A stretch of 64,000 nucleotides of DNA from the NCBI GenBank assembly GCA_019057795.1, contig JAHLWS010000024.1:1-64000 (forward strand), in the 5' to 3' direction. Each line of letters starts with the position of its first letter. The stretch's first letter is position 1. Under the pieces are notes generated by a model. The model had not been told where the DNA came from. It was given only the letters and a program-made list of their open reading frames with translations, and did not search any database. The translations under genes were made by a program, and so were the position numbers. The stretch is from Promethearchaeota archaeon (lineage in GTDB: Archaea > Asgardarchaeota > Lokiarchaeia > Sigyniarchaeales > SOKP01). Positions 1,529 through 14,062 of the stretch are shown one piece after another.

Positions 1529-4500
1529 TTAATACTTAATTTCACAAGACTCCGAATCACAGAACTTACTTCCTATTGCTCTATCTTTTGTTTTATCCAA
1601 ATCTAAAGGTTTAAGTTTTGAAACCATTTCCTCGAATTTTTCTTTTGTGATTTCTTCGTAAGGAGCTTGTTTGTAACCGTGTTCTTTAATCGGTAAAAAA
1701 CTCACGCTTTTTAGCTTATCTTCAAAGCACTCCAGCACGTGTTTAATCTGATTTGCCTCTTCTTGCTTAAATGTAATCGTAATTGATACTTGGTTGTCGG
1801 ACCAATATTTTTGATAGTCTGCGGCATTTTCCGCTTGTTCCCATATGGAAACATCGTCCTTGGAACGTTCAAATAATTGTTCGTGGACGGGAAATTCGAC
1901 TACAATAGTATTAGGAGAATAAGAATCGTCCTCTATGTAATAACCCGCGTTTTTAATGGGTTCTATCAAATCAGAATTCTTCGAAATGCGAATTCTTCTA
2001 ATATAGTATTCTGAATGAGGATAATGAATTCCAGGAGTGACTCCCGGAAGTAAGCTAACGGTTCCGCTCGGTTTAACCGTAGTAATTTTTAACGATTTTG
2101 GGACGCACAACCAATCGGAATAATCCTCGTCCAATTCTCGTAAATATTTATAGCCTTTATCGCACCAGTCTAATATAGTCCTTCTCCCATATTTCACAAA
2201 AGCTTCAATTATTCCTGTTTGTGAAATTCCCATTCGCCTATTCTTAAGCATCACTGCGTTAGTTTCTTGCCAATGCGTATTTACGAGCGTAACAGATTTG
2301 GCATACAAATAAGCATACTTTAGGGTGTTTTTATACTCTTCGTAAGATTCGTGCCTTGAGGGGAACGATTCCACAAGACAACAAAGTTCAAATGATTCTA
2401 AGGTTTGTTCTCCGCAATTCGCAGTAAAAATCATTTCAAGTTTTGGTCTACCTGACTTTGTTTCTTTTTCAGTTAGAATAATTCCATAATTATGGAAATC
2501 ATCGACTGTGCCGTTATAAACTGTATTTTCCCCAATATAATTAACTGATACAACTTTATGGTTATAAGATAGACCGCAGTCTTTTAGTTTTAGTGCCATT
2601 TGTTGCCTATACTGATGTTTACTTAATGAGCGAACGGAGATTCTTTGACAAACATATTTCTCAGTGATTTTATCCATTACATATTGATAACCTTTATAGA
2701 TTCCAGCAGTTCTAAAATCGTTGATTCCATTTTCTTTAATAATCTTTAAGAAATCAGCTAACTGAGGAACCTCATTTTGTTCATAAATATATTGAGCAAA
2801 TAATTGACATAATTTTCTTCTAGCTTCTTGTTGATTTCTTTTTCCTTTATTTTTCATCGCTGCGCCTGCCTTAATTGCAGCTATTTTATTAGCACATTTA
2901 TGTGAACAATAAGCTTGCTCTCGTCTGCCATATTTTACTTTAAATTCCCTTCTACATAATGCACAATATTTTACAACAAACATACCATCTTCAAAAATTA
3001 ACTCAAGATCGCTTTCTTTCAGTAAATTAATATATTTTTTATATTCTCTCATTAGAGCTGGGTTATCTAAATGTTCAAATCCAGATTCAATATTCGCTCT
3101 TTTAATAAAGTTCAATAATGAACCACGAAATTCAGTAAAAGAAGATATTAATCCGATTTCTTTTGAATATTCTTTCCAAGCGGGAATAGTTAATGGTTCA
3201 TTTGTTCTTTTGATATAGGAAATCATCTCATTATAAATTTGCTCATTAGAGATTCCAGAATATCTTGGGTTTTTGGTACCGGAAGTAGCTTTCGACATCC
3301 TTTGATGATATTGTTGTTTTTCTTCAGGAGTAGCATGGGGATACCAAATACGCATAGGATTTTTATCACCTGATATATCATGTAAAGAATCATGATCATC
3401 CTTTAGCATAAGTTCTAAATTATCTTTTCTATTATTCAAACCATCCTTGTCTTTATGATGGAGAACATACCCACTGGGAATTTTACATTTATTAAGTTGT
3501 TCATAAATAAATGAATGTTCGAAAGTATTTTTCTTTCCATTATTTAACATCCAATAAATTGATCTTTTCTTCTTTTCTTCTCCCATTATCTCTGCCCAAG
3601 TTGTTTGCCATTTTGGCGTTATCATTAGACTATCTCCACTTCTTAATTCTCTAGCTTCTAAAGATGTATTATTCCTTAAAATAAACTTATGATTTCCTGT
3701 GCATTTTATTATACTATCATCATCCAATTTTACTTCATATATTTTCTCATTATAACCTGTAATTCTTGGATTTCTCATCATTCTTATTACTGTTAATCCT
3801 TTATCATCTTTACAGTACACAGGAATATCGTTTCCTTCTTCTGCCAATTGTTTTATTGCCACAGCATTCCTACCATCAGCGACAGCAATTAAAGTATCAC
3901 CTGTAATACAAGGGTTTACGCCCGCAGCTTTCTTATCTTTCTGATCTGGCGGACTTCCCATCCGAGAATATGCTTTTGCGTTTTCTAACCAAAGAATTCC
4001 GGGTTCCCCATTCACAGCAATCTGATCTGCTATGAAAGAATAGTCTAATCCTTTTACCGCGAATATACTGTTATTGCTTGCCCATCTATGCGAATATAGT
4101 TTTTCTTTGTCTTGTTTGCACTTTATAAATTCTAAATCGGTGGCTTCCCCTAATGCGATTTCAGCGCTGCGGCGAACATTGCCGGCTACCACGCATTTCC
4201 CAATGAGATTCATAATATCCAAGATATCAAGTGTTTTTATTGGTTGCTCTATTCGCGCCTTTAAAATTTCTTGGATATTCATCAACATGTCCTTTAAAGG
4301 ATCTGGACCGCTGGCGATTCCTCCAAAACCTCTAATTGGCTGACCTGCAGACCTGATTAAACTAAAATCAAACTTTGGGAGTCGTTTACCTAAGAAATAC
4401 GCCTCTATAACAAGTTTAAGCGATTCCACCCAACCTTCTCTGCTATCGGGTATTTGAAAAGTAAAATGATCTTCTATAGGTTTTTTAATTGTAATTTTAC

Positions 4501-5257
4501 CCGCTCCTTTCGTATCAAAACCTACCCCTACGCCCAACATTAGCGCATCCATCACAAATTGAAACGCTTTCGAGTATTTTAAGTCAATATCGTCAGTAGA
4601 GGCAAACCCACAGTTATTGAGCGACATAGAACCATGACGCGCGATAAATTCGGTCCCCATCATCCAAAGACCTCTTCCCGGTGGTAAAAACTTAAAATTC
4701 CAGATTTTTTCATACATTATTTGGGCAGATTTCTGAGCTTTAGCATCGGTCCAAGGTAAACTTAACTTAATGCAGTGCTCCTTTTGGATTGAATAACAAC
4801 CCTCGACGACTCTTCTGATCGTTTCCCAGAACTCTTCTTTTCTGTTCTCTCCTTCTACAACTCTTGCGTAAGTTCTTTTGTACGTGATGTGCCCTAAAGG
4901 CCCCCAATCAGGTTGTTTCCCTATAAATTTAGCAAGAAAATTATTGTCTAACGTGAAAGATATGTTTTCCAAATTAATAGCTCGGGCGAATAGATTTCGG
5001 TATTTGTTTAAACCTCGTTGGGTTAGCTCGACGCATACTAATTCTCTAATGTAATTAGTGGTGATCTCATCAACTCCTAGACCAATAATAATTCGAATAA
5101 CATCTTCTGTAACATTCTCTGCAATGTTTATGTCCAGCCCTGTTTCCTTATTTAAAACCTTAGCAATATTAGAAACATCAAACTCTTTTTTTTCACCTTT
5201 AGAGTTTATTACATATTTTGGATACAAATCTTTTAATGAAAACGAATTATCAGTCAT
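1529..5257 (-). CDS. nrdJ: Adenosylcobalamin-dependent (class II, RTPR-type) ribonucleotide reductase with N-terminal ATP-cone and an intein
   Basis: Motifs PPGRGLW, LNNC, RRSAEIALG, NP|CGEQ (split by the intein), TTVKPSGT and C-terminal CDSESC. The N-terminal VINSKG..FD..I segment is ATP-cone-like. Confidence 0.95.
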   Translation of the reverse strand: MTDNSFSLKDLYPKYVINSKGEKKEFDVSNIAKVLNKETGLDINIAENVTEDVIRIIIGLGVDEITTNYIRELVCVELTQRGLNKYRNLFARAINLENISFTLDNNFLAKFIGKQPDWGPLGHITYKRTYARVVEGENRKEEFWETIRRVVEGCYSIQKEHCIKLSLPWTDAKAQKSAQIMYEKIWNFKFLPPGRGLWMMGTEFIARHGSMSLNNCGFASTDDIDLKYSKAFQFVMDALMLGVGVGFDTKGAGKITIKKPIEDHFTFQIPDSREGWVESLKLVIEAYFLGKRLPKFDFSLIRSAGQPIRGFGGIASGPDPLKDMLMNIQEILKARIEQPIKTLDILDIMNLIGKCVVAGNVRRSAEIALGEATDLEFIKCKQDKEKLYSHRWASNNSIFAVKGLDYSFIADQIAVNGEPGILWLENAKAYSRMGSPPDQKDKKAAGVNPCITGDTLIAVADGRNAVAIKQLAEEGNDIPVYCKDDKGLTVIRMMRNPRITGYNEKIYEVKLDDDSIIKCTGNHKFILRNNTSLEARELRSGDSLMITPKWQTTWAEIMGEEKKKRSIYWMLNNGKKNTFEHSFIYEQLNKCKIPSGYVLHHKDKDGLNNRKDNLELMLKDDHDSLHDISGDKNPMRIWYPHATPEEKQQYHQRMSKATSGTKNPRYSGISNEQIYNEMISYIKRTNEPLTIPAWKEYSKEIGLISSFTEFRGSLLNFIKRANIESGFEHLDNPALMREYKKYINLLKESDLELIFEDGMFVVKYCALCRREFKVKYGRREQAYCSHKCANKIAAIKAGAAMKNKGKRNQQEARRKLCQLFAQYIYEQNEVPQLADFLKIIKENGINDFRTAGIYKGYQYVMDKITEKYVCQRISVRSLSKHQYRQQMALKLKDCGLSYNHKVVSVNYIGENTVYNGTVDDFHNYGIILTEKETKSGRPKLEMIFTANCGEQTLESFELCCLVESFPSRHESYEEYKNTLKYAYLYAKSVTLVNTHWQETNAVMLKNRRMGISQTGIIEAFVKYGRRTILDWCDKGYKYLRELDEDYSDWLCVPKSLKITTVKPSGTVSLLPGVTPGIHYPHSEYYIRRIRISKNSDLIEPIKNAGYYIEDDSYSPNTIVVEFPVHEQLFERSKDDVSIWEQAENAADYQKYWSDNQVSITITFKQEEANQIKHVLECFEDKLKSVSFLPIKEHGYKQAPYEEITKEKFEEMVSKLKPLDLDKTKDRAIGSKFCDSESCEIKY
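2417..3910 (-). mobile_element. 498-aa intein with HNH-type homing endonuclease, inserted in the NP|CGE active-site motif of nrdJ
   Basis: Block A CITGDT; block B IKCTGNHKF; block F VYNGTVDDFHNY; ends TAN before the +1 Cys. Internal HHKDKDGLNNRKDNL...H (HNH) and a CxxC...CSHKC zinc finger. Confidence 0.93.
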
Positions 5258-5705
5258 TATTTTACTCCTTAATTGCGATAATGGTTATTACATTAATTTT
5301 ATCGGCGTTTTTCAAAACGTCTAAATTTTGATTGCCTTAACCTAATTTTTAATTTAAGTTATAATATAATATAAAACTATTGATTCAATATTATTAAACG
5401 ATTGATGAATCTGTTAAAATCTTGCGTATTTCTTTTAATTCTACATCTACTATTCAATTACCCAATTAGTTTAAATTTTTTACTATTAATCAACATTACA
5501 TCTCTTATGGTTTTCTAATGTGTTTACGTCGGTTTTTATAACTTATAGAAACCTTCATTAACAATATCTTTTTATTGGTTAGCATATTTAAAAAAAAAAT
5601 TGAAATTGATTACTATATTATTAATATTAATAATATTAAAATCAAATTAGAAAGTTCAAATACTAAAAATAATTGATTTTAACGATAATCTTGGTGTAGT
5701 AAAAA

Positions 5706-6653
5706 ATGTCAGACGAAATTGAACCACCTGATATGAGTGACTCTGATGGTGAAGTTGCTAAAGAAAAAATTAAACTCCAATTTCATTGGTATATGAGTAT
5801 CTTTTTAGTTATATACTATTGTTCATATTTAATACCGGGAATTGTTTTTATGGAGTATGTCTTATTAGTATTTATCCCACTCTTTTTAAGGGTAGATAAC
5901 CTGTTTGTTGTCTTTACGAACCTTGATTCTTTACTAGCTTTTTTAGCTTTACCGTTAGTTCTTATTGTGAGTTATTTAATCCACTTATTTTTGGTAGGTT
6001 TGATCTCGCGAATTATCTGGAGATATACTGAAAAAATTTCACCTAGTAAAGATGGAATTATTCCAAGAAATATTCCTTCTAAAACTGCTAATTTATACCA
6101 TATAAGATCCTTTATGATTAAATACGGAAAAAATGCTTTCATGAAAGGAATATTTCCTTGGTTAGCAAATTGGTTTTTTAATTTTGTAGGAACCAGCGTA
6201 ATTAAAAAGGGTTCTACGCTCGAAGAATCAGTAGTTACGGATAGAAATGTAAATGTTGGAAGAAACTGCTACATCGGTGTTAATTCGGCGCTATCTAGCC
6301 ATTTTGTTGAGGGAGTTTTCGGAAATATTGTGTACTTTGAAATAAAGCTAGGAGAAAATGTTACTTTAGGGGGTTTTAATAACATTGCCCCTGGATGCGA
6401 ACTAAGAGATAATTCCTATTTATTGCCAATGGCAGCAGCAACTAAGCACAATTTGTTAAAAGGAAATAATTACTACTTTGGCATGCCTTTGCGTAGAATA
6501 TTTAAGAAGAAAATTATGGATTACTTAAAGATTAGCGAGGATAATTTAGTTCAAGCTGAAGACTTAAGAGTTAAGCAAGAAAACGCAAAGTTGGAGAGGA
6601 TAAAAAAAGAAGCAAAAAAAAATGAAAAAAAAAACATAATAATAATGGAGTGA
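5706..6653 (+). CDS. Membrane-anchored left-handed beta-helix (hexapeptide repeat) acyltransferase-like protein, paralogue 1
   Basis: Two N-terminal hydrophobic segments; hexapeptide repeats (VNVGRNCYIG, IKLGENVTLG); C-terminal YYFGMP. Confidence 0.8.
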   Translation: MSDEIEPPDMSDSDGEVAKEKIKLQFHWYMSIFLVIYYCSYLIPGIVFMEYVLLVFIPLFLRVDNLFVVFTNLDSLLAFLALPLVLIVSYLIHLFLVGLISRIIWRYTEKISPSKDGIIPRNIPSKTANLYHIRSFMIKYGKNAFMKGIFPWLANWFFNFVGTSVIKKGSTLEESVVTDRNVNVGRNCYIGVNSALSSHFVEGVFGNIVYFEIKLGENVTLGGFNNIAPGCELRDNSYLLPMAAATKHNLLKGNNYYFGMPLRRIFKKKIMDYLKISEDNLVQAEDLRVKQENAKLERIKKEAKKNEKKNIIIME

Positions 6654-6658
6654 GATAA

Positions 6659-7549
6659 ATGGCTGAAGCTATAGAAGATGGAAATGATGATTCTGATTTT
6701 ATTATTGATTTCACTACGAGTTCTGCTATAAACAGAGTTAGTCTTAAGTTTTTAATAGTATATTTGCCAATTTTTTGGTTTAGTGGTTTAATAGTTACCA
6801 CCTTTTGGTACGGCTACACTGTAAGCAAACTACCATGGATAATTAATTTGTTATTTTTACCACTTTTATTGTTAGCACTTATGTTTCTTTTCATTATTAG
6901 TTGCTTCTTTTTTAGTAAGCTTCTATTAATTTTAATAAATTTAATGCACCTCCCTAAAGAGGGGATATTCCGCACTGCCAAGGGTGATACTGATTTTGAG
7001 TTTTGGAGGCTTAGAACCGAGATAAAGAAAATAACTTTATGGCTAATAAGAAACTGGCCTTTACCTTGGTTAGATGTATTAGCATTTCGCTGGTTTGGAG
7101 TAAATATGGATTTTTCGAGCCATTTAAACGATGCCTGGTGTGACGCTGAATTTATTAAGTTTGGAAACAGCGTAACTGTTGGACAAGGGGCAGTAATAAT
7201 GAGCTCAATGGTAGTAGGTAATTATCTAATCATCAAAAGAATAACTTTCGAAAATTTCGCTCTTATTGGAGGGCAGAGCACGATCGCCCCTGGGACTCAC
7301 TTTGGAAAAGATACTGTTTTAGGTGCAGTATCAGTTACCACTCTTAATCAAAAACTAGAAGACGGGTGGATATATTCAGGTATTCCTGCTAGAAAATTAA
7401 AGCCTAATCAATACGCTGAAATGAGAAGAGATATTATACAAAAAGTAGATGTTGACGAAGAAGAAAAAATTGAAGTAGAGCACGAAGTCAATATCGATGA
7501 AGATAAAAAACATTTAATTAGAGGAAAAAAGGGAGGCGTTGAAAAGTGA
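6659..7549 (+). CDS. Membrane-anchored LbH acyltransferase-like protein, paralogue 2
   Basis: Two TM segments; PKEGIF...FWRLR; hexapeptide repeats (IKFGNSVTVGQGAVI); WIYSGIPA. Confidence 0.85.
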   Translation: MAEAIEDGNDDSDFIIDFTTSSAINRVSLKFLIVYLPIFWFSGLIVTTFWYGYTVSKLPWIINLLFLPLLLLALMFLFIISCFFFSKLLLILINLMHLPKEGIFRTAKGDTDFEFWRLRTEIKKITLWLIRNWPLPWLDVLAFRWFGVNMDFSSHLNDAWCDAEFIKFGNSVTVGQGAVIMSSMVVGNYLIIKRITFENFALIGGQSTIAPGTHFGKDTVLGAVSVTTLNQKLEDGWIYSGIPARKLKPNQYAEMRRDIIQKVDVDEEEKIEVEHEVNIDEDKKHLIRGKKGGVEK

Positions 7550-8472
7550 GCGTTCCGAATTCAATGCGCGTCGGTCCTTTTTGTGCAACCGTACTGGCTA
7601 AGAAAAAATATTTGATTTTGTATATTTTTTTAATATGGATAAGTCTACTTCCTGCGATATTGGAAATTTGGTGGTATTGGCAGATGTTGTGGGATGATAT
7701 AAGACCACTTCATTTCTATGTGTTTTTACCTCTTTATTTAATTGTAATATACATCACAACTGTGTTTGCTGCGATATTCTTTGCAAAAATTTTATTAATT
7801 ATTGCTAATGTTTTTCATAAACCAAGAGAAGGCGTTTTTCTAAGGGATCCCGCAGATAAAGATTATAGATATTGGAGTCTTAGAAATACAATTAAAAAGT
7901 GGCCAATCTGGCTCGCACATAAATTTCCCTTTCCATTTTTGGACAATATTTGTTTCAAGATATTTGGAGTAAAAACAAAATTTTCTAACTCACTTTTTGA
8001 AGGTTGGGTGGATACTGAATATGTCGAGTTCGGTAAAAATGTGGTTGTTGGCCAGGGAGCTATAATTCAATCTTCGGTTATTATAGGAAACTTTTTAATC
8101 ATTAAAAAAACCATTATTGAAGAAAACGTTAGAATAGGCGCACATGTAATAATTATGCCAGGCACCCATATAGGAAAAAACTGTATTTTAAACACTTGGT
8201 CGTCTACAATGGTAGGTCAAGAACTAGAAGAAGGTTGGGTGTATAATGGGGGTCCTGCGAAAAAATTCAAGAAAAATAGATTTTTCGAAGACATTCCTAT
8301 CGAAAAACTTACAAAAACTATTGGAGACCTTGACGGATTATTAAAGAAATACGACGAGCAATATGTTAAGCGGCATGTAAAAAAGAAGATATCTCTCAAA
8401 GAAAGAAGAATTCGTATAAGAAAAGAAAAATCCGAAGAAAACCCTGAAGAAAAAACTGAAAAAAAGGATTAA
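7546..8472 (+). CDS. Membrane-anchored LbH acyltransferase-like protein, paralogue 3
   Basis: Two TM segments; PREGVF...YRYWSLR; VEFGKNVVVGQGAII; WVYNGGPA. Overlaps the upstream stop (GTGA). Confidence 0.85.
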   Translation: MSVPNSMRVGPFCATVLAKKKYLILYIFLIWISLLPAILEIWWYWQMLWDDIRPLHFYVFLPLYLIVIYITTVFAAIFFAKILLIIANVFHKPREGVFLRDPADKDYRYWSLRNTIKKWPIWLAHKFPFPFLDNICFKIFGVKTKFSNSLFEGWVDTEYVEFGKNVVVGQGAIIQSSVIIGNFLIIKKTIIEENVRIGAHVIIMPGTHIGKNCILNTWSSTMVGQELEEGWVYNGGPAKKFKKNRFFEDIPIEKLTKTIGDLDGLLKKYDEQYVKRHVKKKISLKERRIRIRKEKSEENPEEKTEKKD

Positions 8473-8474
8473 TC

Positions 8475-9260
8475 ATGAAAATTGGTTATGTTCAAACCTC
8501 TCCCACCTTTAGCGAAAAAACTCAAAATTTTGAACAAGTAAAGAACTTATTAAGCAATAATAAAGCAGATTTAATTGTATTACCTGAACTTTTCGCAACC
8601 GGTTACGCTTTCATTTCTAAAAAAGAAGCTGAATCTTTAGCGGAAGATATTAACGGGCAAACCGCTCAATTTCTAAAGAAGTTATCAAAAGATACAGGTG
8701 GAGTCGTAATTGGAGGGTTTATTGAGAAAGATGGCAATGAAATCTTCAATTCTGCGATGATAATTTCAAAAAATGAAGTTATCGGCACCTATAGGAAAAT
8801 CCATCTATACTATAAAGAACACCTATGGTTCTCTCCTGGAAACAAGCCTTTACGAATTTACGAAGTAAACAACATGATAATCGGAATAATGATTTGTTTC
8901 GATTGGTTTTTTCCGGAGACAATTCGTACGCTCGCGCTTCTTGGAGCTGATATCATTGCACATCCCGCTAACTTAGTACTTCCGTATTGCCAAAAAGCTA
9001 TGACTACTCATTGTTTGGTAAATCGCGTTTTTGCTGTAACATCTAACAGAATTGGCAACGAAGTAAGGGGGGAAGACGATTTTAAGTTTACGGGGGGAAG
9101 TCAAATCACGTCTTATAATGGGGACATACTATCATCCGCACCTACGGATAAAATCTCTATTAATTTTATAGAAATTGATGTAATCCACGCAAGAGATAAA
9201 AAGCTAAATAGTTATAATGATTTACTAAATGATAGAAGACCAGATTTCTATCTTCTATAA
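8475..9260 (+). CDS. Carbon-nitrogen hydrolase (nitrilase superfamily)
   Basis: Glu-Lys-Cys triad motifs LPELF, YRKIHL and ICFDWFFPE; C-terminal DRRPDFY. Confidence 0.92.
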   Translation: MKIGYVQTSPTFSEKTQNFEQVKNLLSNNKADLIVLPELFATGYAFISKKEAESLAEDINGQTAQFLKKLSKDTGGVVIGGFIEKDGNEIFNSAMIISKNEVIGTYRKIHLYYKEHLWFSPGNKPLRIYEVNNMIIGIMICFDWFFPETIRTLALLGADIIAHPANLVLPYCQKAMTTHCLVNRVFAVTSNRIGNEVRGEDDFKFTGGSQITSYNGDILSSAPTDKISINFIEIDVIHARDKKLNSYNDLLNDRRPDFYLL

Positions 9261-9287
9261 TCATTTTATTATAAAAAGATTCAAACC

Positions 9288-10295
9288 ATGAAAGCTGCTG
9301 TATTTGATGGGCAAAAAATTGCCATTAAAGAAGTGTCTAAACCTGAACCTGAAGATTCTCAAGTTTTAATTCAAGTAAAAGCTGCGGGAATTTGTGGCAC
9401 GGATGTAGCAATTGTAAGTGGATATCTTCCAACTCCCATCCCGCTCATATTAGGACACGAATTCGCTGGTGAAATTGTAGAAGTAGGGAAAAATGTGACC
9501 CCCACTTGGCTAGGTAAACGAGTTACTTCAGAAATTAATAGTAATATTGATTTTGAATGTTATTATTGTAAACGAGAGATGTTTACACAATGCGTCTCTA
9601 GAAAAGCCTTAGGGATCGATATCAATGGAGCGTTCGCGGAGTTCATTGCTGTCGAGTCTTATTTGATACACGAATTACCGAAAAAGATATCTCACGAAGA
9701 AGCTACCTTTATCGAACCGTTAGCCGCGGCCTATCAAACATTTGAAATTATGCCTATAGAAAAAGACGATAAAATTGTTGCAATTTTTGGTCTTGGAAAG
9801 TTAGGCTTATTGCTAACTCAAGTTGCGTTATTAAAAGGATTGAAGTTAATTGTAATTGACGGCTCAGATAAAAAACTTTCCTTAGCTAAGAAGTTTGGCG
9901 CACATTATTCAATTAATCGTTTGAGTGTAAATGATATACCAACTGAAATTAGAGATTTAATAAAAAACATTGGAGCTGATATCGTTGTTGATACTACAGG
10001 AAACCCAGATGCCATAAAGGATGTTGTTGCTTCGTGTAAAACTCGAGGTAAAATCCACATAAAAAGTACTCACGGGTTAGAGACTCCAATTAATTTTACT
10101 GATATTGTGGTTAGGGAAATTACTATTTATAGCAGTAGATGTGGTCCCTTTGATAAAGCTATTGAAGGATTAAGTTCAGGAAAAGTTAAGGTTAAGGAAT
10201 TAATTTCTAAAGAGTATGAGTTAAATAATATCCAAGAAGCTTTTGCTTCTTACGAGAAAAACCGTGATCATATAAAAACTATTATCTTAATTTAG
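9288..10295 (+). CDS. Zinc-dependent alcohol/sugar dehydrogenase (MDR family)
   Basis: GICGTD, LGHEFAG, structural Zn CxxCx7C, Rossmann GLGKLG. Confidence 0.92.
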   Translation: MKAAVFDGQKIAIKEVSKPEPEDSQVLIQVKAAGICGTDVAIVSGYLPTPIPLILGHEFAGEIVEVGKNVTPTWLGKRVTSEINSNIDFECYYCKREMFTQCVSRKALGIDINGAFAEFIAVESYLIHELPKKISHEEATFIEPLAAAYQTFEIMPIEKDDKIVAIFGLGKLGLLLTQVALLKGLKLIVIDGSDKKLSLAKKFGAHYSINRLSVNDIPTEIRDLIKNIGADIVVDTTGNPDAIKDVVASCKTRGKIHIKSTHGLETPINFTDIVVREITIYSSRCGPFDKAIEGLSSGKVKVKELISKEYELNNIQEAFASYEKNRDHIKTIILI

Positions 10296-10680
10296 AAAAA
10301 ATTACTTGGTTCTCCAAGAAACTTATTATCTTCTTGCAAGTCCTTCGAACTGTATTCTTATTTGGATAAAAAAATTCTGGTCTTGGACATTCGCTATCAA
10401 AAACACACGAGTTCTTATCTGAATCGAAAATTAAAGGATAAAATCGGCATCCTTGAGGTCTTATCTCGTAAATTTTACATAATTTTGTTTCCCCATCGAA
10501 AAAGAAGCAATGTCCGTTAATATTTTTTAATTGATAAAAATTGTCTTCAGTTTTTTGTACAAAATCTGTTTTTCTCAAGGTTGTTTTATGACTACTAACG
10601 ATAGCTTCGATATCTTGGTCAGAGAGAATCATCTCTGTCTCTATACAGCAATTTCCACAATCTTCACATATATTCTTCAT
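10282..10680 (-). CDS. YkgJ-family (CxxCxxCC) cysteine-cluster protein
   Basis: CEDCGNCC, CFFF, CKIYEIRPQGCRFYP. Confidence 0.88.
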   Translation of the reverse strand: MKNICEDCGNCCIETEMILSDQDIEAIVSSHKTTLRKTDFVQKTEDNFYQLKNINGHCFFFDGETKLCKIYEIRPQGCRFYPLIFDSDKNSCVFDSECPRPEFFYPNKNTVRRTCKKIISFLENQVIFSKLR

Positions 10681-11441
10681 TTTCCTAATTCTTCTCTCTT
10701 AATTAGAACTTCTTTAATATAATAGCAATTTTCTCGATAAGGACAAATTTGGCATCCCCAATCATATTCACAGTCAATCTTTTTTTTCCATTCTTCAATT
10801 TTGGCTTTCCATTTCTTAGCAAATTGTGCTGTTATTTCGGAAGAGATTTCTTTGAAATGTCCTATTGAATCTGTATATGTGATAAAGAATATTTCCATAG
10901 CTTTGATTAGATTTCCAAATTTTTGGTGATAAAGATGAAAGATTGCATTTCCTAAAAGTTCAAATGAAAAATTGCGTTGTAGTGCATTGTAACTTATTCT
11001 ACACCAAAATCTCCGAGGAATTGTTCTTATTAGAAAACCCTCAATGCTATTGGAGATAAAAGATAATTGCCTTAATTCATCATTTTCTATTTCACTTTTA
11101 TTGACTCCAATTAAAATGAATAATCCAAAATCGATAGAGGATTCCTTTATTGCTTTAATTTCTTGACCTAATAGAGTTATATTTCCGTCATGAAGGTTTT
11201 CTAATTCCTGAATCGGAAAAACAAGTAAAAAAGATTTTTTATTTACGCCCCCTAATTCTAATCCGGTTTCTTCTTGAAGAATAACTTTTTTAAAATAATC
11301 TAACTTAACTCCAATATTAGATTTGCCAAAGAAATTATAATAGTCAAGATTTTTTTGATAAGTAATCAGATTTTTTCCAATTTCGTATTCTTTGTTGAAA
11401 AAGTCCCTAAGTCTTTGTATCAACCGTTGATTTTGCATCAA
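10677..11441 (-). CDS. Truncated acetyl-CoA synthase beta (CdhC/AcsB)-like protein, copy 1
   Basis: ELGG..F...DGNITLLG.EI and IEGF...FWCRIS...FSFELLG match the ACS middle domain. Ends with Cx5CxxCx5C. Paralogue of 33406-34173. Confidence 0.7.
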   Translation of the reverse strand: MMQNQRLIQRLRDFFNKEYEIGKNLITYQKNLDYYNFFGKSNIGVKLDYFKKVILQEETGLELGGVNKKSFLLVFPIQELENLHDGNITLLGQEIKAIKESSIDFGLFILIGVNKSEIENDELRQLSFISNSIEGFLIRTIPRRFWCRISYNALQRNFSFELLGNAIFHLYHQKFGNLIKAMEIFFITYTDSIGHFKEISSEITAQFAKKWKAKIEEWKKKIDCEYDWGCQICPYRENCYYIKEVLIKREELGK

Positions 11442-11615
11442 TTATTAATAACTCTTTTTATTTATTAAATTGTCCCTTGAACTACTAGTTTGAAAAACAT
11501 TACGCTTTTAAACATGAACAGCATAATTTATACTAAATTATTATTTTATGTGAATCCCAAGAATAATAATTATAATAGAGAGGCAGAATTATAAAAATTA
11601 GATGGAGTAAAGATT

Positions 11616-12737
11616 ATGCCTATTTTAGAGCAACTTAAGGAAGCAACTCAACTTACAAATCCTTGGATTAATAGCTGGAAAAATGAAGGAAAAAAAGTAT
11701 TAGGATATTTTTGTTCATATATTCCTGAAGAGATCATCTACGCTGCAGATATTTTACCGATCAGGGTTAGAACAAGAACGTGTACAGATACACCAATGGG
11801 GGATGCTTATTTAAGTCCTACCGCATGTAGTTATACAAGATGTTGTCTTGAGCAAATTAATAGAAAAGAATTTGGATATCTTGATGGAATTGTTTCGTGT
11901 AACTGCTGCGACCAAATTAGGAGACTTTACGACAATATAAGATATAAGGCTCCGTTTCCTTATCACTACATTATGGGTGTTCCAGGTTATGTCAGTGAAA
12001 CTACAATAGATTGGTTTAAATACGAACTCTCTAAATTTAAAGCAAGTATTGAGAAAAATTTCAATATTAGTATTACCGATGGAAAGTTAGGGGATGCGAT
12101 TAGATTATATAACAATTCTCGTAAGTTACTTAAAGAGATATATGAGCTCAGAAAACAAGATTCCCCTCCTATTACAGGTAGTGATGTAATAAATATCATT
12201 TCAGCAGGACTCTCTATTCCAAAAAATGAGTTTAACGCTTTATTAACACAGCAACTTGAGGAAATTAAGAATAAAGAAGGTAAATCTGATTATAAAGCGA
12301 GAATAATGATAATCGGAAGTATGCTTGACGAACCAGAATATTTACAAATTATAGAAAATCTCGGCGGTTTAGTAGTCACTGATTCGGTATGTTTAGGAAC
12401 TCGATATTTTTGGGATATGGTTGATGAAACTTCGAGTCCTCTTGATGCTCTTGGAGAGCGTTATTTGTCGAAAGTCTCTTGTCCTCGTATGACTTATGGA
12501 CATTTGAAAAGAGAGCAATTTATGATGGATCTGATTAAAGAGTTTAATGTTGATGGGGTAATTTTTCAAAGAATGAAGTTTTGTGCGATATGGTGGGCTG
12601 AGATTTTCATGCTTAGGGACAAATTAAAAGAAGAAGGTATTCCATTTCTTGATTTAGAAAGGGATTACATATTAAGCGGAGCTGGAGCTATGAAAACTCG
12701 TGTTCAAACATTTATAGAAATTTTAGAAGCGAGGTGA
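11616..12737 (+). CDS. 2-hydroxyacyl-CoA dehydratase / benzoyl-CoA reductase family subunit (HgdB/BcrC-like)
   Basis: GYFCSYIPEE, CSY, CDQIRR, SCPR, DGVIF..KFC, TRVQTFIE. Confidence 0.9.
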   Translation: MPILEQLKEATQLTNPWINSWKNEGKKVLGYFCSYIPEEIIYAADILPIRVRTRTCTDTPMGDAYLSPTACSYTRCCLEQINRKEFGYLDGIVSCNCCDQIRRLYDNIRYKAPFPYHYIMGVPGYVSETTIDWFKYELSKFKASIEKNFNISITDGKLGDAIRLYNNSRKLLKEIYELRKQDSPPITGSDVINIISAGLSIPKNEFNALLTQQLEEIKNKEGKSDYKARIMIIGSMLDEPEYLQIIENLGGLVVTDSVCLGTRYFWDMVDETSSPLDALGERYLSKVSCPRMTYGHLKREQFMMDLIKEFNVDGVIFQRMKFCAIWWAEIFMLRDKLKEEGIPFLDLERDYILSGAGAMKTRVQTFIEILEAR

Positions 12738-14062
12738 AAAATATGGATATAGAATTATTTAACAAATACAAAAAACTTGGAAGAGGTAATTGGGGAAAAG
12801 ATCTTACTATGTGGAAAATGATGTATTTGGGATTTCTAAATCAATATAGAGATGAAGAATTTACACCAATTTTGGATTTATTACTTAATATCTTCCTTGA
12901 CCTCCCTAAGGCAAGGAAAGAAGGAAAACCCGTTATAATGCATTCATTTAATTATGGACCTGAATTATTTCACGCAATGGACTTAGCACCTCTTATGCAG
13001 GAATTATTTAGCGTTGGATTAGCCCCGTTACATCTTAATGAACCTTTTATTGATTTTAGTAATCAAATTGGATATGGAGACAATCCAACAATCTGTAATG
13101 CTCAAAGACCATTGATTGGTTCTTTTATGCAAGGTGTCTCGCCAATTCCTGATTTACTATTCTTTCTTTCAACGCCTTGTAATTCTCTTGCTATGACTTA
13201 TCAAGTTTTTGAACATTTGGCTAAAATCCCCGCATTTAATATAGATGTCCCTTATTGGGCTTATGAACAACAAGATAACGAATTTTACGATGAGAATACT
13301 ATTGGTTATATGGTAAAGCAAGTAAAAGAATTAATATTATGGTTAGAAAAAGAAACAAAGCAGAAGTTAGATTATGAAAATCTCCAAAAAACAATGAAAA
13401 ATGTGAACCTATCAAGAGAATACATATTAGAGTTTAACGAACTTTTAAAAACGATTCCTTGCCCAATGCCGAGCATAGCAGGTTTTGGGAATTTTCTTGC
13501 TATGGTGACTCGTGGTGGCACTGATGATGCTGTTAAAGCTACCAAATGGCTACGTGATTCTGCTCTAGAAAATATTAAAGATGGGATAGCAGGTGTACCT
13601 GATGAGAAGATTAGAATTGCTTGGCCTTATACTCATGTCTTCTTTGATGCTGACCTTCTCACTTGGTTAGAAGAAACATTCAACGCAGTGACGATTATGG
13701 ATATACTTGGATACTACCAAGTCCTACCTCACGATACATCTACAATAGAAAAATGTTATGAGAGTTTAGCTAAGGGAACATTAGATTTCTCAATGGTGGG
13801 AACATGTCGTGGCCCAATTGAGTTTTATATCGAATTTTTATTAAATTATGTAAAAGATTATAAAATAGATTGTGTGATTATGCCAATGCAATTTGCGTGT
13901 AAACACGCATATGCGATGGCCCGAGTTGCTTCTGAAGCTGTGCGAGAACAAACAGGAATTCCAGTTTTAATTTTTGGTTGTGATCCTTATGATTCACGAG
14001 AAGTAACTTCAGATGCTATAAGAGAGAGGATTTCAGAGTTTCTCACTCAAGTAGTTTTATAA
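12734..14062 (+). CDS. 2-hydroxyacyl-CoA dehydratase / benzoyl-CoA reductase family subunit (HgdA/BcrB-like)
   Basis: PELFHAMD, IC, TPCN, IDVP, DCVI...ACK, RISEF. Confidence 0.85.
   Translation: MKNMDIELFNKYKKLGRGNWGKDLTMWKMMYLGFLNQYRDEEFTPILDLLLNIFLDLPKARKEGKPVIMHSFNYGPELFHAMDLAPLMQELFSVGLAPLHLNEPFIDFSNQIGYGDNPTICNAQRPLIGSFMQGVSPIPDLLFFLSTPCNSLAMTYQVFEHLAKIPAFNIDVPYWAYEQQDNEFYDENTIGYMVKQVKELILWLEKETKQKLDYENLQKTMKNVNLSREYILEFNELLKTIPCPMPSIAGFGNFLAMVTRGGTDDAVKATKWLRDSALENIKDGIAGVPDEKIRIAWPYTHVFFDADLLTWLEETFNAVTIMDILGYYQVLPHDTSTIEKCYESLAKGTLDFSMVGTCRGPIEFYIEFLLNYVKDYKIDCVIMPMQFACKHAYAMARVASEAVREQTGIPVLIFGCDPYDSREVTSDAIRERISEFLTQVVL

Follow-up and report, generated by a model that had tools for sequence, protein, structure and literature searches.

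Three tandem genes of an Asgard archaeon, related to the terminal module of Pls-type synthetases, are predicted to encode one heteromeric membrane left-handed beta-helix acyltransferase

The DNA analysed here, hereafter the window, is a stretch of 64,000 nt from a Promethearchaeota archaeon of the Asgard order Sigyniarchaeales (positions 1–64,000 of contig JAHLWS010000024.1, GenBank assembly GCA_019057795.1), and its subject is a set of three consecutive genes, named A, B and C, which each encode a transmembrane (TM) hairpin followed by a left-handed beta-helix (LbH) of hexapeptide repeats. The three proteins are best read as subunits, most likely in a 1:1:1 ratio, of one membrane-anchored LbH acyltransferase with pseudo-threefold symmetry, a reading to which a probability of roughly 0.7 is given. 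That the set is a real, conserved and undescribed variant of a known module is well supported, and so are its predicted class, a membrane LbH acyltransferase, and its heteromeric assembly. The combination of a TM hairpin and an LbH has until now been characterised only as the fused and poorly understood polymerising end of Pls-type synthetases; the same module is found here as three separate small genes, and every sampled genome of one Asgard order has it. A naturally split heterotrimer with one His-bearing subunit would be a tractable case for donor and acceptor binding in pseudo-trimeric membrane LbH machines, and it points to a molecule of the membrane or the surface that is acylated in those archaea which are most closely related to eukaryotes.

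Judged from their protein sequences A, B and C are paralogues; C matches B with 41% identity (E 1e-63) and A with 22% identity (E 2e-13), and A and B match each other at E 1e-6. A Kyte-Doolittle analysis revealed two hydrophobic stretches within the first ~100 residues of each protein. These are followed by a linker motif of the type P-x-(D/E)-G (PSKDG, A113–117; LPKEG, B98–102; KPREG, C92–96) and by a helix with an aromatic residue and an Arg. Pro113 and Gly117 of A are invariant in an alignment of A-type orthologues (alignment A3), and the linker Gly is kept, with few exceptions, across the Asgard, Pls and bacterial units compared, as is a G-x-P end, the units of Pls synthetases and bacterial triples included. 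With the Pfam model Hexapep (PF00132, cut-off 27 bits) A and C scored above the cut-off (27.5 and 42.3 bits) and B below it (17.8 bits). The initial annotation of the DNA, made from the sequence alone, had described three paralogues with two TM helices, linker, hexapeptide repeats and a G-x-P end, followed by a nitrilase and an alcohol dehydrogenase (ADH), and each of these elements was recovered in its place. The GTG start of C is supported by an N-terminus, SVPNSMRVGPF, that is conserved among the orthologues. Public annotations name members of the family "DapH/DapD/GlmU-related", "acyltransferase" or hypothetical, all source names being Asgard, and among members longer than usual no informative fused Pfam domain was found.

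A resemblance to the C1-C2-C3 module that terminates the poly-amino-acid synthetases (Pls) had been proposed, and it is borne out by profile, hhalign and fold searches, which agree with each other. When the proteins were compared with NCBIfam, the model of the Pls/PosA terminal domain, TIGR02353, was the top match for both B (34.5 bits, 7.6e-9) and C (43.9 bits, 1.1e-11) but had no match in A; relative to its cut-off of 423.1 bits, Asgard fusion proteins scored 54–70 bits and true members 471–612 bits. Such weak matches were rejected as evidence on their own since they are unspecific, the model giving matches in 13 of 14 control genomes, and the link to Pls therefore rests on the reverse profile, the hhalign comparisons and the fold searches. 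A profile built from 26 Asgard units (A2) and searched against 1.84 billion representative proteins recovered bona fide Pls/PosA nonribosomal peptide synthetases (NRPSs) with E-values of 1e-29 to 1e-31, each matched in three stretches, among them P0275 (1320 aa), which contains AMP-binding, PP-binding and TIGR02353 (590 bits) domains, P0261 (1713 aa) and P0256 (2443 aa). The best of these stretches covers profile positions 19–265, from the TM region through the end of the beta-helix. Comparing Asgard with Pls units by hhalign gave a probability of 99.5% (E 3.5e-23), and with bacterial stand-alone triples 99.4% over 172 columns, covering TM2 and the P-x-E-G linker. Searches of PDB sequences with C and with profiles of A and C returned generic soluble LbH enzymes only and no Pls-type structure, and in the solved soluble enzymes only the last ~58–130 positions were matched, at no more than 42 bits. 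As the Pls matches span the unit from the TM region to the helix end, and as the fold searches point the same way, the resemblance is true homology of the complete unit, from the TM hairpin across the linker to the beta-helix, and goes beyond generic hexapeptide similarity.

A C-A-B fusion that occurs naturally in Asgard archaea (P0128, 797 aa) was modelled with AlphaFold2, with a pLDDT (predicted local distance difference test) of 80.4 and a pTM (predicted TM-score) of 0.83; in each of its units a pair of long helices leads through a short strand and two further helices into an LbH. The same architecture per unit was modelled for the C-terminal domain of PosA (PMC10522769), and the Asgard unit, as modelled in this fusion, would have the features of a Pls-type unit, a TM pair, a strand with two helices and an LbH of five turns. 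After Asgard clusters the nearest folds to the model in the Atlas were Pls/PosA clusters (TM-score by query 0.48–0.50, 451–484 residues aligned). When a single unit was searched with Foldseek the nearest solved structures were maltose and galactoside O-acetyltransferases (TMt 0.57–0.62, ~187 columns).

Pls and PosA (synthetases of epsilon-poly-L-lysine and delta-poly-L-ornithine) thus share with the Asgard proteins the TM hairpin, the strand, the two helices, the five-turn LbH and the G-x-P end, as well as three units per module of which only some carry a candidate catalytic His. They differ in that the module of Pls/PosA is part of one polypeptide, behind adenylation and thiolation domains, whereas the Asgard module is divided over three genes with no such domains fused or nearby. 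Full-text literature searches for TIGR02353, for a cryo-electron microscopy structure of Pls and for Asgard hexapeptide membrane acyltransferases gave no description of the system, in line with the earlier remark that no archaeal system of this kind had been described. The PosA paper handles the module solely as part of NRPS-like synthetases (PMC10522769), and reviews do likewise.

The units were further compared in a quick-search tree of 51 divergent sequences. All 18 Asgard units fell into one clade (99% support in the Shimodaira-Hasegawa-like approximate likelihood ratio test, SH-aLRT), the Pls units together with those of a chytrid into a second (92%) and the bacterial stand-alone triples into a third (96%), and within each clade the units group by position. 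The proposal that A, B and C are a split version of C1-C2-C3 is not upheld by this tree; with a clade that contains the Asgard units alone, A, B and C would be analogues and not orthologues of C1, C2 and C3, and each lineage seems to have triplicated the unit independently. The chytrid sequence, P0264 of the fungus Obelidium mucronatum (809 aa), is a triple without adenylation or thiolation domains that clusters with the Pls units.

One residue separates A from its two partners. His199 of A, in the sequence SSH-x-VEG, is invariant in the 28 sequences of alignment A3, and the profile of this alignment places it on His115 of E. coli LacA (1kqa), which we take to be the general base of that enzyme. 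B and C have a Ser at this column, and the general-base-type His of LbH acyltransferases of the maltose and galactoside acetyltransferase (MAT/GAT) type is therefore present in A only. An uneven distribution of the His was also seen in other triplicated modules: among four Pls proteins it is found in unit 3 of all four, in unit 1 of two and in unit 2 of none, and among six bacterial triples in unit 2 of all six and in units 1 and 3 of one or two each. Dispersed single-unit relatives of the Asgard proteins kept the His in all twelve cases examined.

Natural fusions connect the three unit types. Proteins of the composition A-B (~610 aa), C-A (~540 aa) and C-A-B (P0126, 805 aa, and P0128) were found, all of them rotations of one cyclic order, and an alignment made of fusions only staggers cleanly along the triple fusion. 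A, B and C units occur in this cyclic order at 16 of the 18 loci examined, all from the archaeal order to which the window belongs, the loci taking the form of three genes, of an A-B fusion together with C, or of a C-A fusion together with a B/C-like unit. Based on the fusions, the conserved triad and the asymmetry of the His, it is very probable that the products of the three genes assemble into one heteromeric complex, and it is to this extent that the earlier claim of an obligate heterotrimeric membrane transferase or polymerase stands.

Complex prediction was run on trimmed A, B and C together and gave an ipSAE interface score of 0.58 (0.58, 0.62 and 0.51 in the separate runs) compared with 0.01 for the best control, with a partner pLDDT of at least 64 and a contact agreement between runs of at least 83%. 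In the calibration of the method the mark was reached by 58 of 80 solved complexes and by 2 of 110 mismatched pairs, but scores at or below 0.60 include only 7 of the 80 solved complexes and both of the passing mismatches. The predictor is unlikely to have known a solved complex, as the PDB copy that was searched yielded no structure of Pls type; LbH trimers as such are plentiful in the PDB. The prediction is accordingly counted as weak support for a heterotrimer.

In the mechanism proposed, each subunit would give a TM hairpin, joined by a short strand and two linker helices to a beta-helix of five turns, and the three beta-helices would pack as an ordinary LbH trimer on top of a six-helix membrane bundle, as modelled for the Pls/PosA module. 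Following the positive-inside rule both termini and the catalytic domains should be cytoplasmic. Because a His at the position of LacA His115 is retained in A alone, the complex would probably have one active site, situated at an A interface, with B and C as non-catalytic partners. The acyl donor is likely to be a coenzyme A (CoA) thioester, given that the genome search revealed no carrier protein, while the acceptor, more speculatively, may be a hydroxyl or amine of a membrane-associated or exported molecule that is made or processed by the ADH and the nitrilase-type C-N hydrolase encoded downstream.

Some observations weigh against such a one-site complex of fixed composition. Other conserved His residues remain in both partners, His155 in B and His125 and His200 in C, so that an activity of another kind is conceivable for them; the complex prediction, as said, gives weak support. 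In family f2 of the window's order (L054 and L055) only pairs of an A-like and a C-like gene were seen, with no B-type unit at the locus, and here the stoichiometry may differ. In relatives (L012, L015, L049, L050 and L059) several clusters contain two or three A-B fusions and only one C gene, and where A-B fusions outnumber C genes a 1:1:1 ratio may not always hold. Close relatives also carry two A genes ahead of B and C, and the sequence data suggest that the excess of A-B fusions and the doubled A genes represent alternative catalytic subunits with common partners. A gene resembling adenylating enzymes of the ANL superfamily (acyl-CoA synthetases, NRPS adenylation domains and luciferases), which accompanies the sets of many relatives together with a DUF6512 gene, was, like the latter, not found anywhere in the window's genome, and the pathway in this genome may therefore be incomplete or different.

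The distribution of the set is narrow. With B as query (E ≤1e-20) every genome sampled from the order of the window gave matches, 2 to 11 apiece (43/43; 40/40 in family f1 and 3/3 in f2), but in other families of the phylum none did (0 of 157 genomes). The conservation of the triplet that had been looked for across Asgard genomes is consequently seen in this order and not phylum-wide, the close triad being found in that order only. On the three points where the initial annotation had exposed itself, the matches were not limited to ordinary homotrimeric LbH enzymes, the heterotrimer was not disfavoured and the triplet was not without conservation. A more sensitive profile gave weaker matches (E 1e-13 to 1e-31) in 53 of the same 157 genomes, and twelve of these that were examined are dispersed single units of 220–290 aa, each with one or two N-terminal hydrophobic stretches.

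From these sequences a likely history is that His-bearing single-unit membrane acyltransferases, presumably homotrimeric, were duplicated into A, B and C with loss of the His in B and C, and that fusions followed. The system would then have arisen within one Asgard order from such single-unit LbH proteins, in parallel with the triplication in Pls and not by descent from it. The series of single units with His, one-site heterotrimer and fusions would illustrate how such a machine evolves, and the Pls synthetases and the bacterial triples represent the same end state, seemingly reached independently.

Further members of the family are present in the genome of the window. On contig C71 (106749–109255; positions 6750–9255 of locus L009, minus strand) a second set was found that consists of a C-A fusion and a single B/C-like unit. 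The fusion is a 544-aa frame from stop to stop whose first canonical start would remove the TM hairpin of the C unit, and the codon at the start position of the orthologues is ATT, either a rare start codon or the mark of a decaying gene. Contig C39 holds a pair of family members (384–2003) at the start of a contig of 5.5 kb, so that a third unit may be missing beyond the contig end; a metallophosphoesterase gene and one similar to ThiI come after the pair. On contig C8 (22757–23563) a lone A-like unit lies beside a fragment of a major facilitator superfamily transporter and a CoA-binding ligase-like gene.

When searching for activating and carrier domains, no AMP-binding or PP-binding domain was identified in A, B or C and no AMP-binding match on the window's contig, in agreement with the earlier statement that adenylation and thiolation domains are neither fused to the genes nor present in the window. 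A search of the genome for free domains had been proposed; the genome, 100% complete by marker genes, contains 16 AMP-binding ligases of acyl-CoA-synthetase size, all of them off this contig, and gave 0 PP-binding matches. A carrier protein was likewise not found in four of five relatives searched. The ANL-like neighbour in relatives is a protein of ~545 aa, paired with DUF6512 beside many sets; of 41 genomes from the window's family 26 have it in this position. A free adenylation-type candidate is thus seen in relatives but not in the genome studied here. It looks like an ANL-type adenylating enzyme on the basis of an invariant TSGTT motif, of language-model features (Atlas feature score 0.96 to GH3/PaaK-like clusters) and of the folds matched by a low-confidence model (pLDDT only 64), whose 50 best fold matches in the PDB are ANL adenylating enzymes without exception; its sequence matched no Pfam model at E ≤0.001 and nothing in the PDB significantly (PaaK, E 0.4).

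These data bear on whether the set could be a true Pls-like polymerase. Monomers would then be activated in trans, as CoA thioester, acyl-adenylate or aminoacyl-tRNA, and the resulting homopolymer or oligomer, with amide or ester linkages, would leave via the six-helix bundle, with the C-N hydrolase trimming or recycling the product. The only characterised whole-unit homologues are indeed polymerases, but the Asgard units stand in a clade apart from the Pls units. The ANL-like neighbour conserved in relatives speaks for a polymerase, yet it was not found in the genome studied here and its family is not confirmed by sequence profiles, and the search of this genome yielded neither a thiolation domain nor a carrier protein. 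Also in favour are an AMP-binding gene 3' of a stand-alone triple from Elusimicrobia and an AlaX-like tRNA-editing gene beside three sets, while the other bacterial triples are located with genes for glycosyltransferases, short-chain dehydrogenases/reductases (SDR) and dTDP-sugars, suggesting acylation of glycolipids or glycans. CoA-activated diamino acids are, to our knowledge, not a known metabolite pool. Taken together a polymerase seems unlikely. Just as doubtful is the broader proposal of a carrier-free, split counterpart of Pls that evolved independently in this one Asgard order, where a catalytic A, often in several alternative copies, would work with a shared B/C scaffold and the ANL-type enzyme (in about two thirds of the family's genomes searched). 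Their export product would be a surface polymer with amide or ester links, or else an acylated lipid, of a kind not yet described.

The bacterial stand-alone triples (650–690 aa, e.g. MBK8576353.1 from Elusimicrobiota, with further forms fused to SDR, 960 aa, or from the chytrid, 809 aa) resemble the Asgard sets in having three TM-hairpin and LbH units without adenylation or thiolation domains, and in a dehydrogenase that is adjacent or fused, comparable to the Asgard ADH. They are, unlike the Asgard sets, single polypeptides and belong to their own clade (96% SH-aLRT), and their neighbours are glycosyltransferases of family GT1, a glucose-methanol-choline (GMC) oxidoreductase, dTDP-sugar genes or an AMP-binding gene, with no C-N hydrolase or CxxCxxCC protein. 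By analogy this context, with a dehydrogenase partner common across domains, hints at acylation of a hydroxyl or amine of a glycolipid-like or surface molecule and not at polymerisation, which is offered as a conjecture.

Still less probable than a polymerase is that A, B and C form three independent, ordinary homotrimeric membrane acetyltransferases which came to lie in tandem by duplication. LbH enzymes are normally homotrimeric and dispersed single-unit relatives do occur in other lineages of the phylum, and the weakness of the heteromer prediction would fit as well, but the A-B, C-A and C-A-B fusions hold one fixed cyclic order, each unit type is present once at 16 of 18 loci, and B and C have lost a His that every single-unit relative kept. 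In addition C is 62–95% identical across the family, which is hard to square with a redundant paralogue. The soluble enzymes Maa and LacA are similar to the Asgard proteins in their LbH fold and in matching a single unit, in the alignment of His115 of LacA with His199 of A and in the CoA-thioester chemistry expected for both; they are homotrimers with three identical sites, while the Asgard complex would be membrane-anchored and built of three distinct subunits, two of which have no such His.

A non-enzymatic or metal-binding heterotrimer that scaffolds another membrane complex, like the gamma-carbonic-anhydrase module of plant complex I, is the least probable of the readings considered, since the best folds per unit are MAT/GAT acyltransferases, A keeps the acyltransferase-type His and the closest full-length relatives are Pls modules and not gamma-carbonic anhydrases, even though gamma-carbonic anhydrases and the related complex I subunits are among the PDB sequence matches (E 5e-5 to 1e-8) and that module, too, is a membrane-attached LbH heterotrimer with degenerate sites. 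The mitochondrial module of plants and protists is hence an analogy only, alike in being a membrane-bound LbH heterotrimer with degenerate subunits and different in its zinc-dependent hydration chemistry and in having no such TM hairpin.

The genes of the proposed heteromeric acyltransferase are the first three of a five-gene cluster on the plus strand (Table 1). A is separated from B by 5 nt, B overlaps C by 4 nt, the C-N hydrolase gene follows C after 2 nt and the ADH gene comes another 27 nt further on, and this tight spacing fits a single putative transcription unit. The kilobase that holds the presumed promoter region has a GC content of 0.26.

Table 1. Positions in the window of the A, B and C genes, selected motifs and neighbouring features
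Feature	Position	Strand	Description
Presumed operon promoter region	5258–5705	.	AT-rich spacer from the divergent ribonucleotide reductase (RNR) gene to gene A; presumed role
Gene A	5706–6653	+	315 aa; hairpin of two TM helices, linker, LbH; sole subunit keeping the candidate catalytic His
PSKDG linker motif of A	6042–6056	+	Residues 113–117, directly past TM2
CAT codon of His199 of A (SSH-x-VEG)	6300–6302	+	
Gene B	6659–7549	+	296 aa; hairpin of two TM helices, LPKEG linker, LbH; Ser-Ser replaces the His
Gene C	7546–8472	+	308 aa; GTG start overlaps the stop of B; hairpin of two TM helices, KPREG linker, LbH; Ser-Ser replaces the His
C-N hydrolase (nitrilase superfamily)	8475–9260	+	Starts 2 nt past C
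Zn-dependent medium-chain dehydrogenase (MDR), ADH	9288–10295	+	
CxxCxxCC Cys-cluster protein (YkgJ-type)	10282–10680	-	Convergent; PF03692, 1.9e-15

The C-N hydrolase was recognised by PF00795 (9.5e-40) and by its similarity to the nitrilase of P. abyssi (3ivz, 1.3e-70), while its score with NF040852 (281 bits) is under the cut-off of 500 bits. It contains the sequences LPELF, YRKIHL and MICFD, which we take to be the motifs of the Glu/Lys/Cys triad of the family. The ADH matched ADH_N (1e-26) and ADH_zinc_N (6.7e-23), both the IolM and the Tdh model remaining under their cut-offs. Among the 18 loci the most frequent neighbour of the sets is the CxxCxxCC protein, found at 12 loci with one of the matches being weak, followed by a Zn-ADH, found at nine. 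A C-N hydrolase lies directly 3' of C at only five loci; the nitrilase that had been regarded as a partner of the triplet is thus present in the window but would be an accessory of one sub-type. A PAP2 phosphatase recurs in a few loci.

In a relative of the same genus (L046) the space between the RNR gene and the triad (3289–7074) contains an ANL-like gene of 540 aa, the DUF6512 gene and a second A-type gene. At the equivalent place the window has only the AT-rich spacer, of 448 bp, and the cluster appears to be reduced in this genome.

Two further observations concern the flanks of the cluster. The RNR gene (1529–5257, minus strand) encodes a class II (B12-type) ribonucleotide reductase of 1242 aa that is split by an intein with an HNH nuclease, as seen from matches to the Pfam models RNR_Alpha, RNR-II_ins_dom, Intein_splicing and HNH_3, and relatives of the same genus have an intein-free RNR of 744–746 aa at the syntenic place. 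On the other side, in the region 10677–14062, a protein of 254 aa matches only part of the model of CdhC (acetyl-CoA synthase beta); its gene is translationally linked to the CxxCxxCC gene and faces two genes for the D-component of 2-hydroxyacyl-CoA dehydratase (HGD-D).

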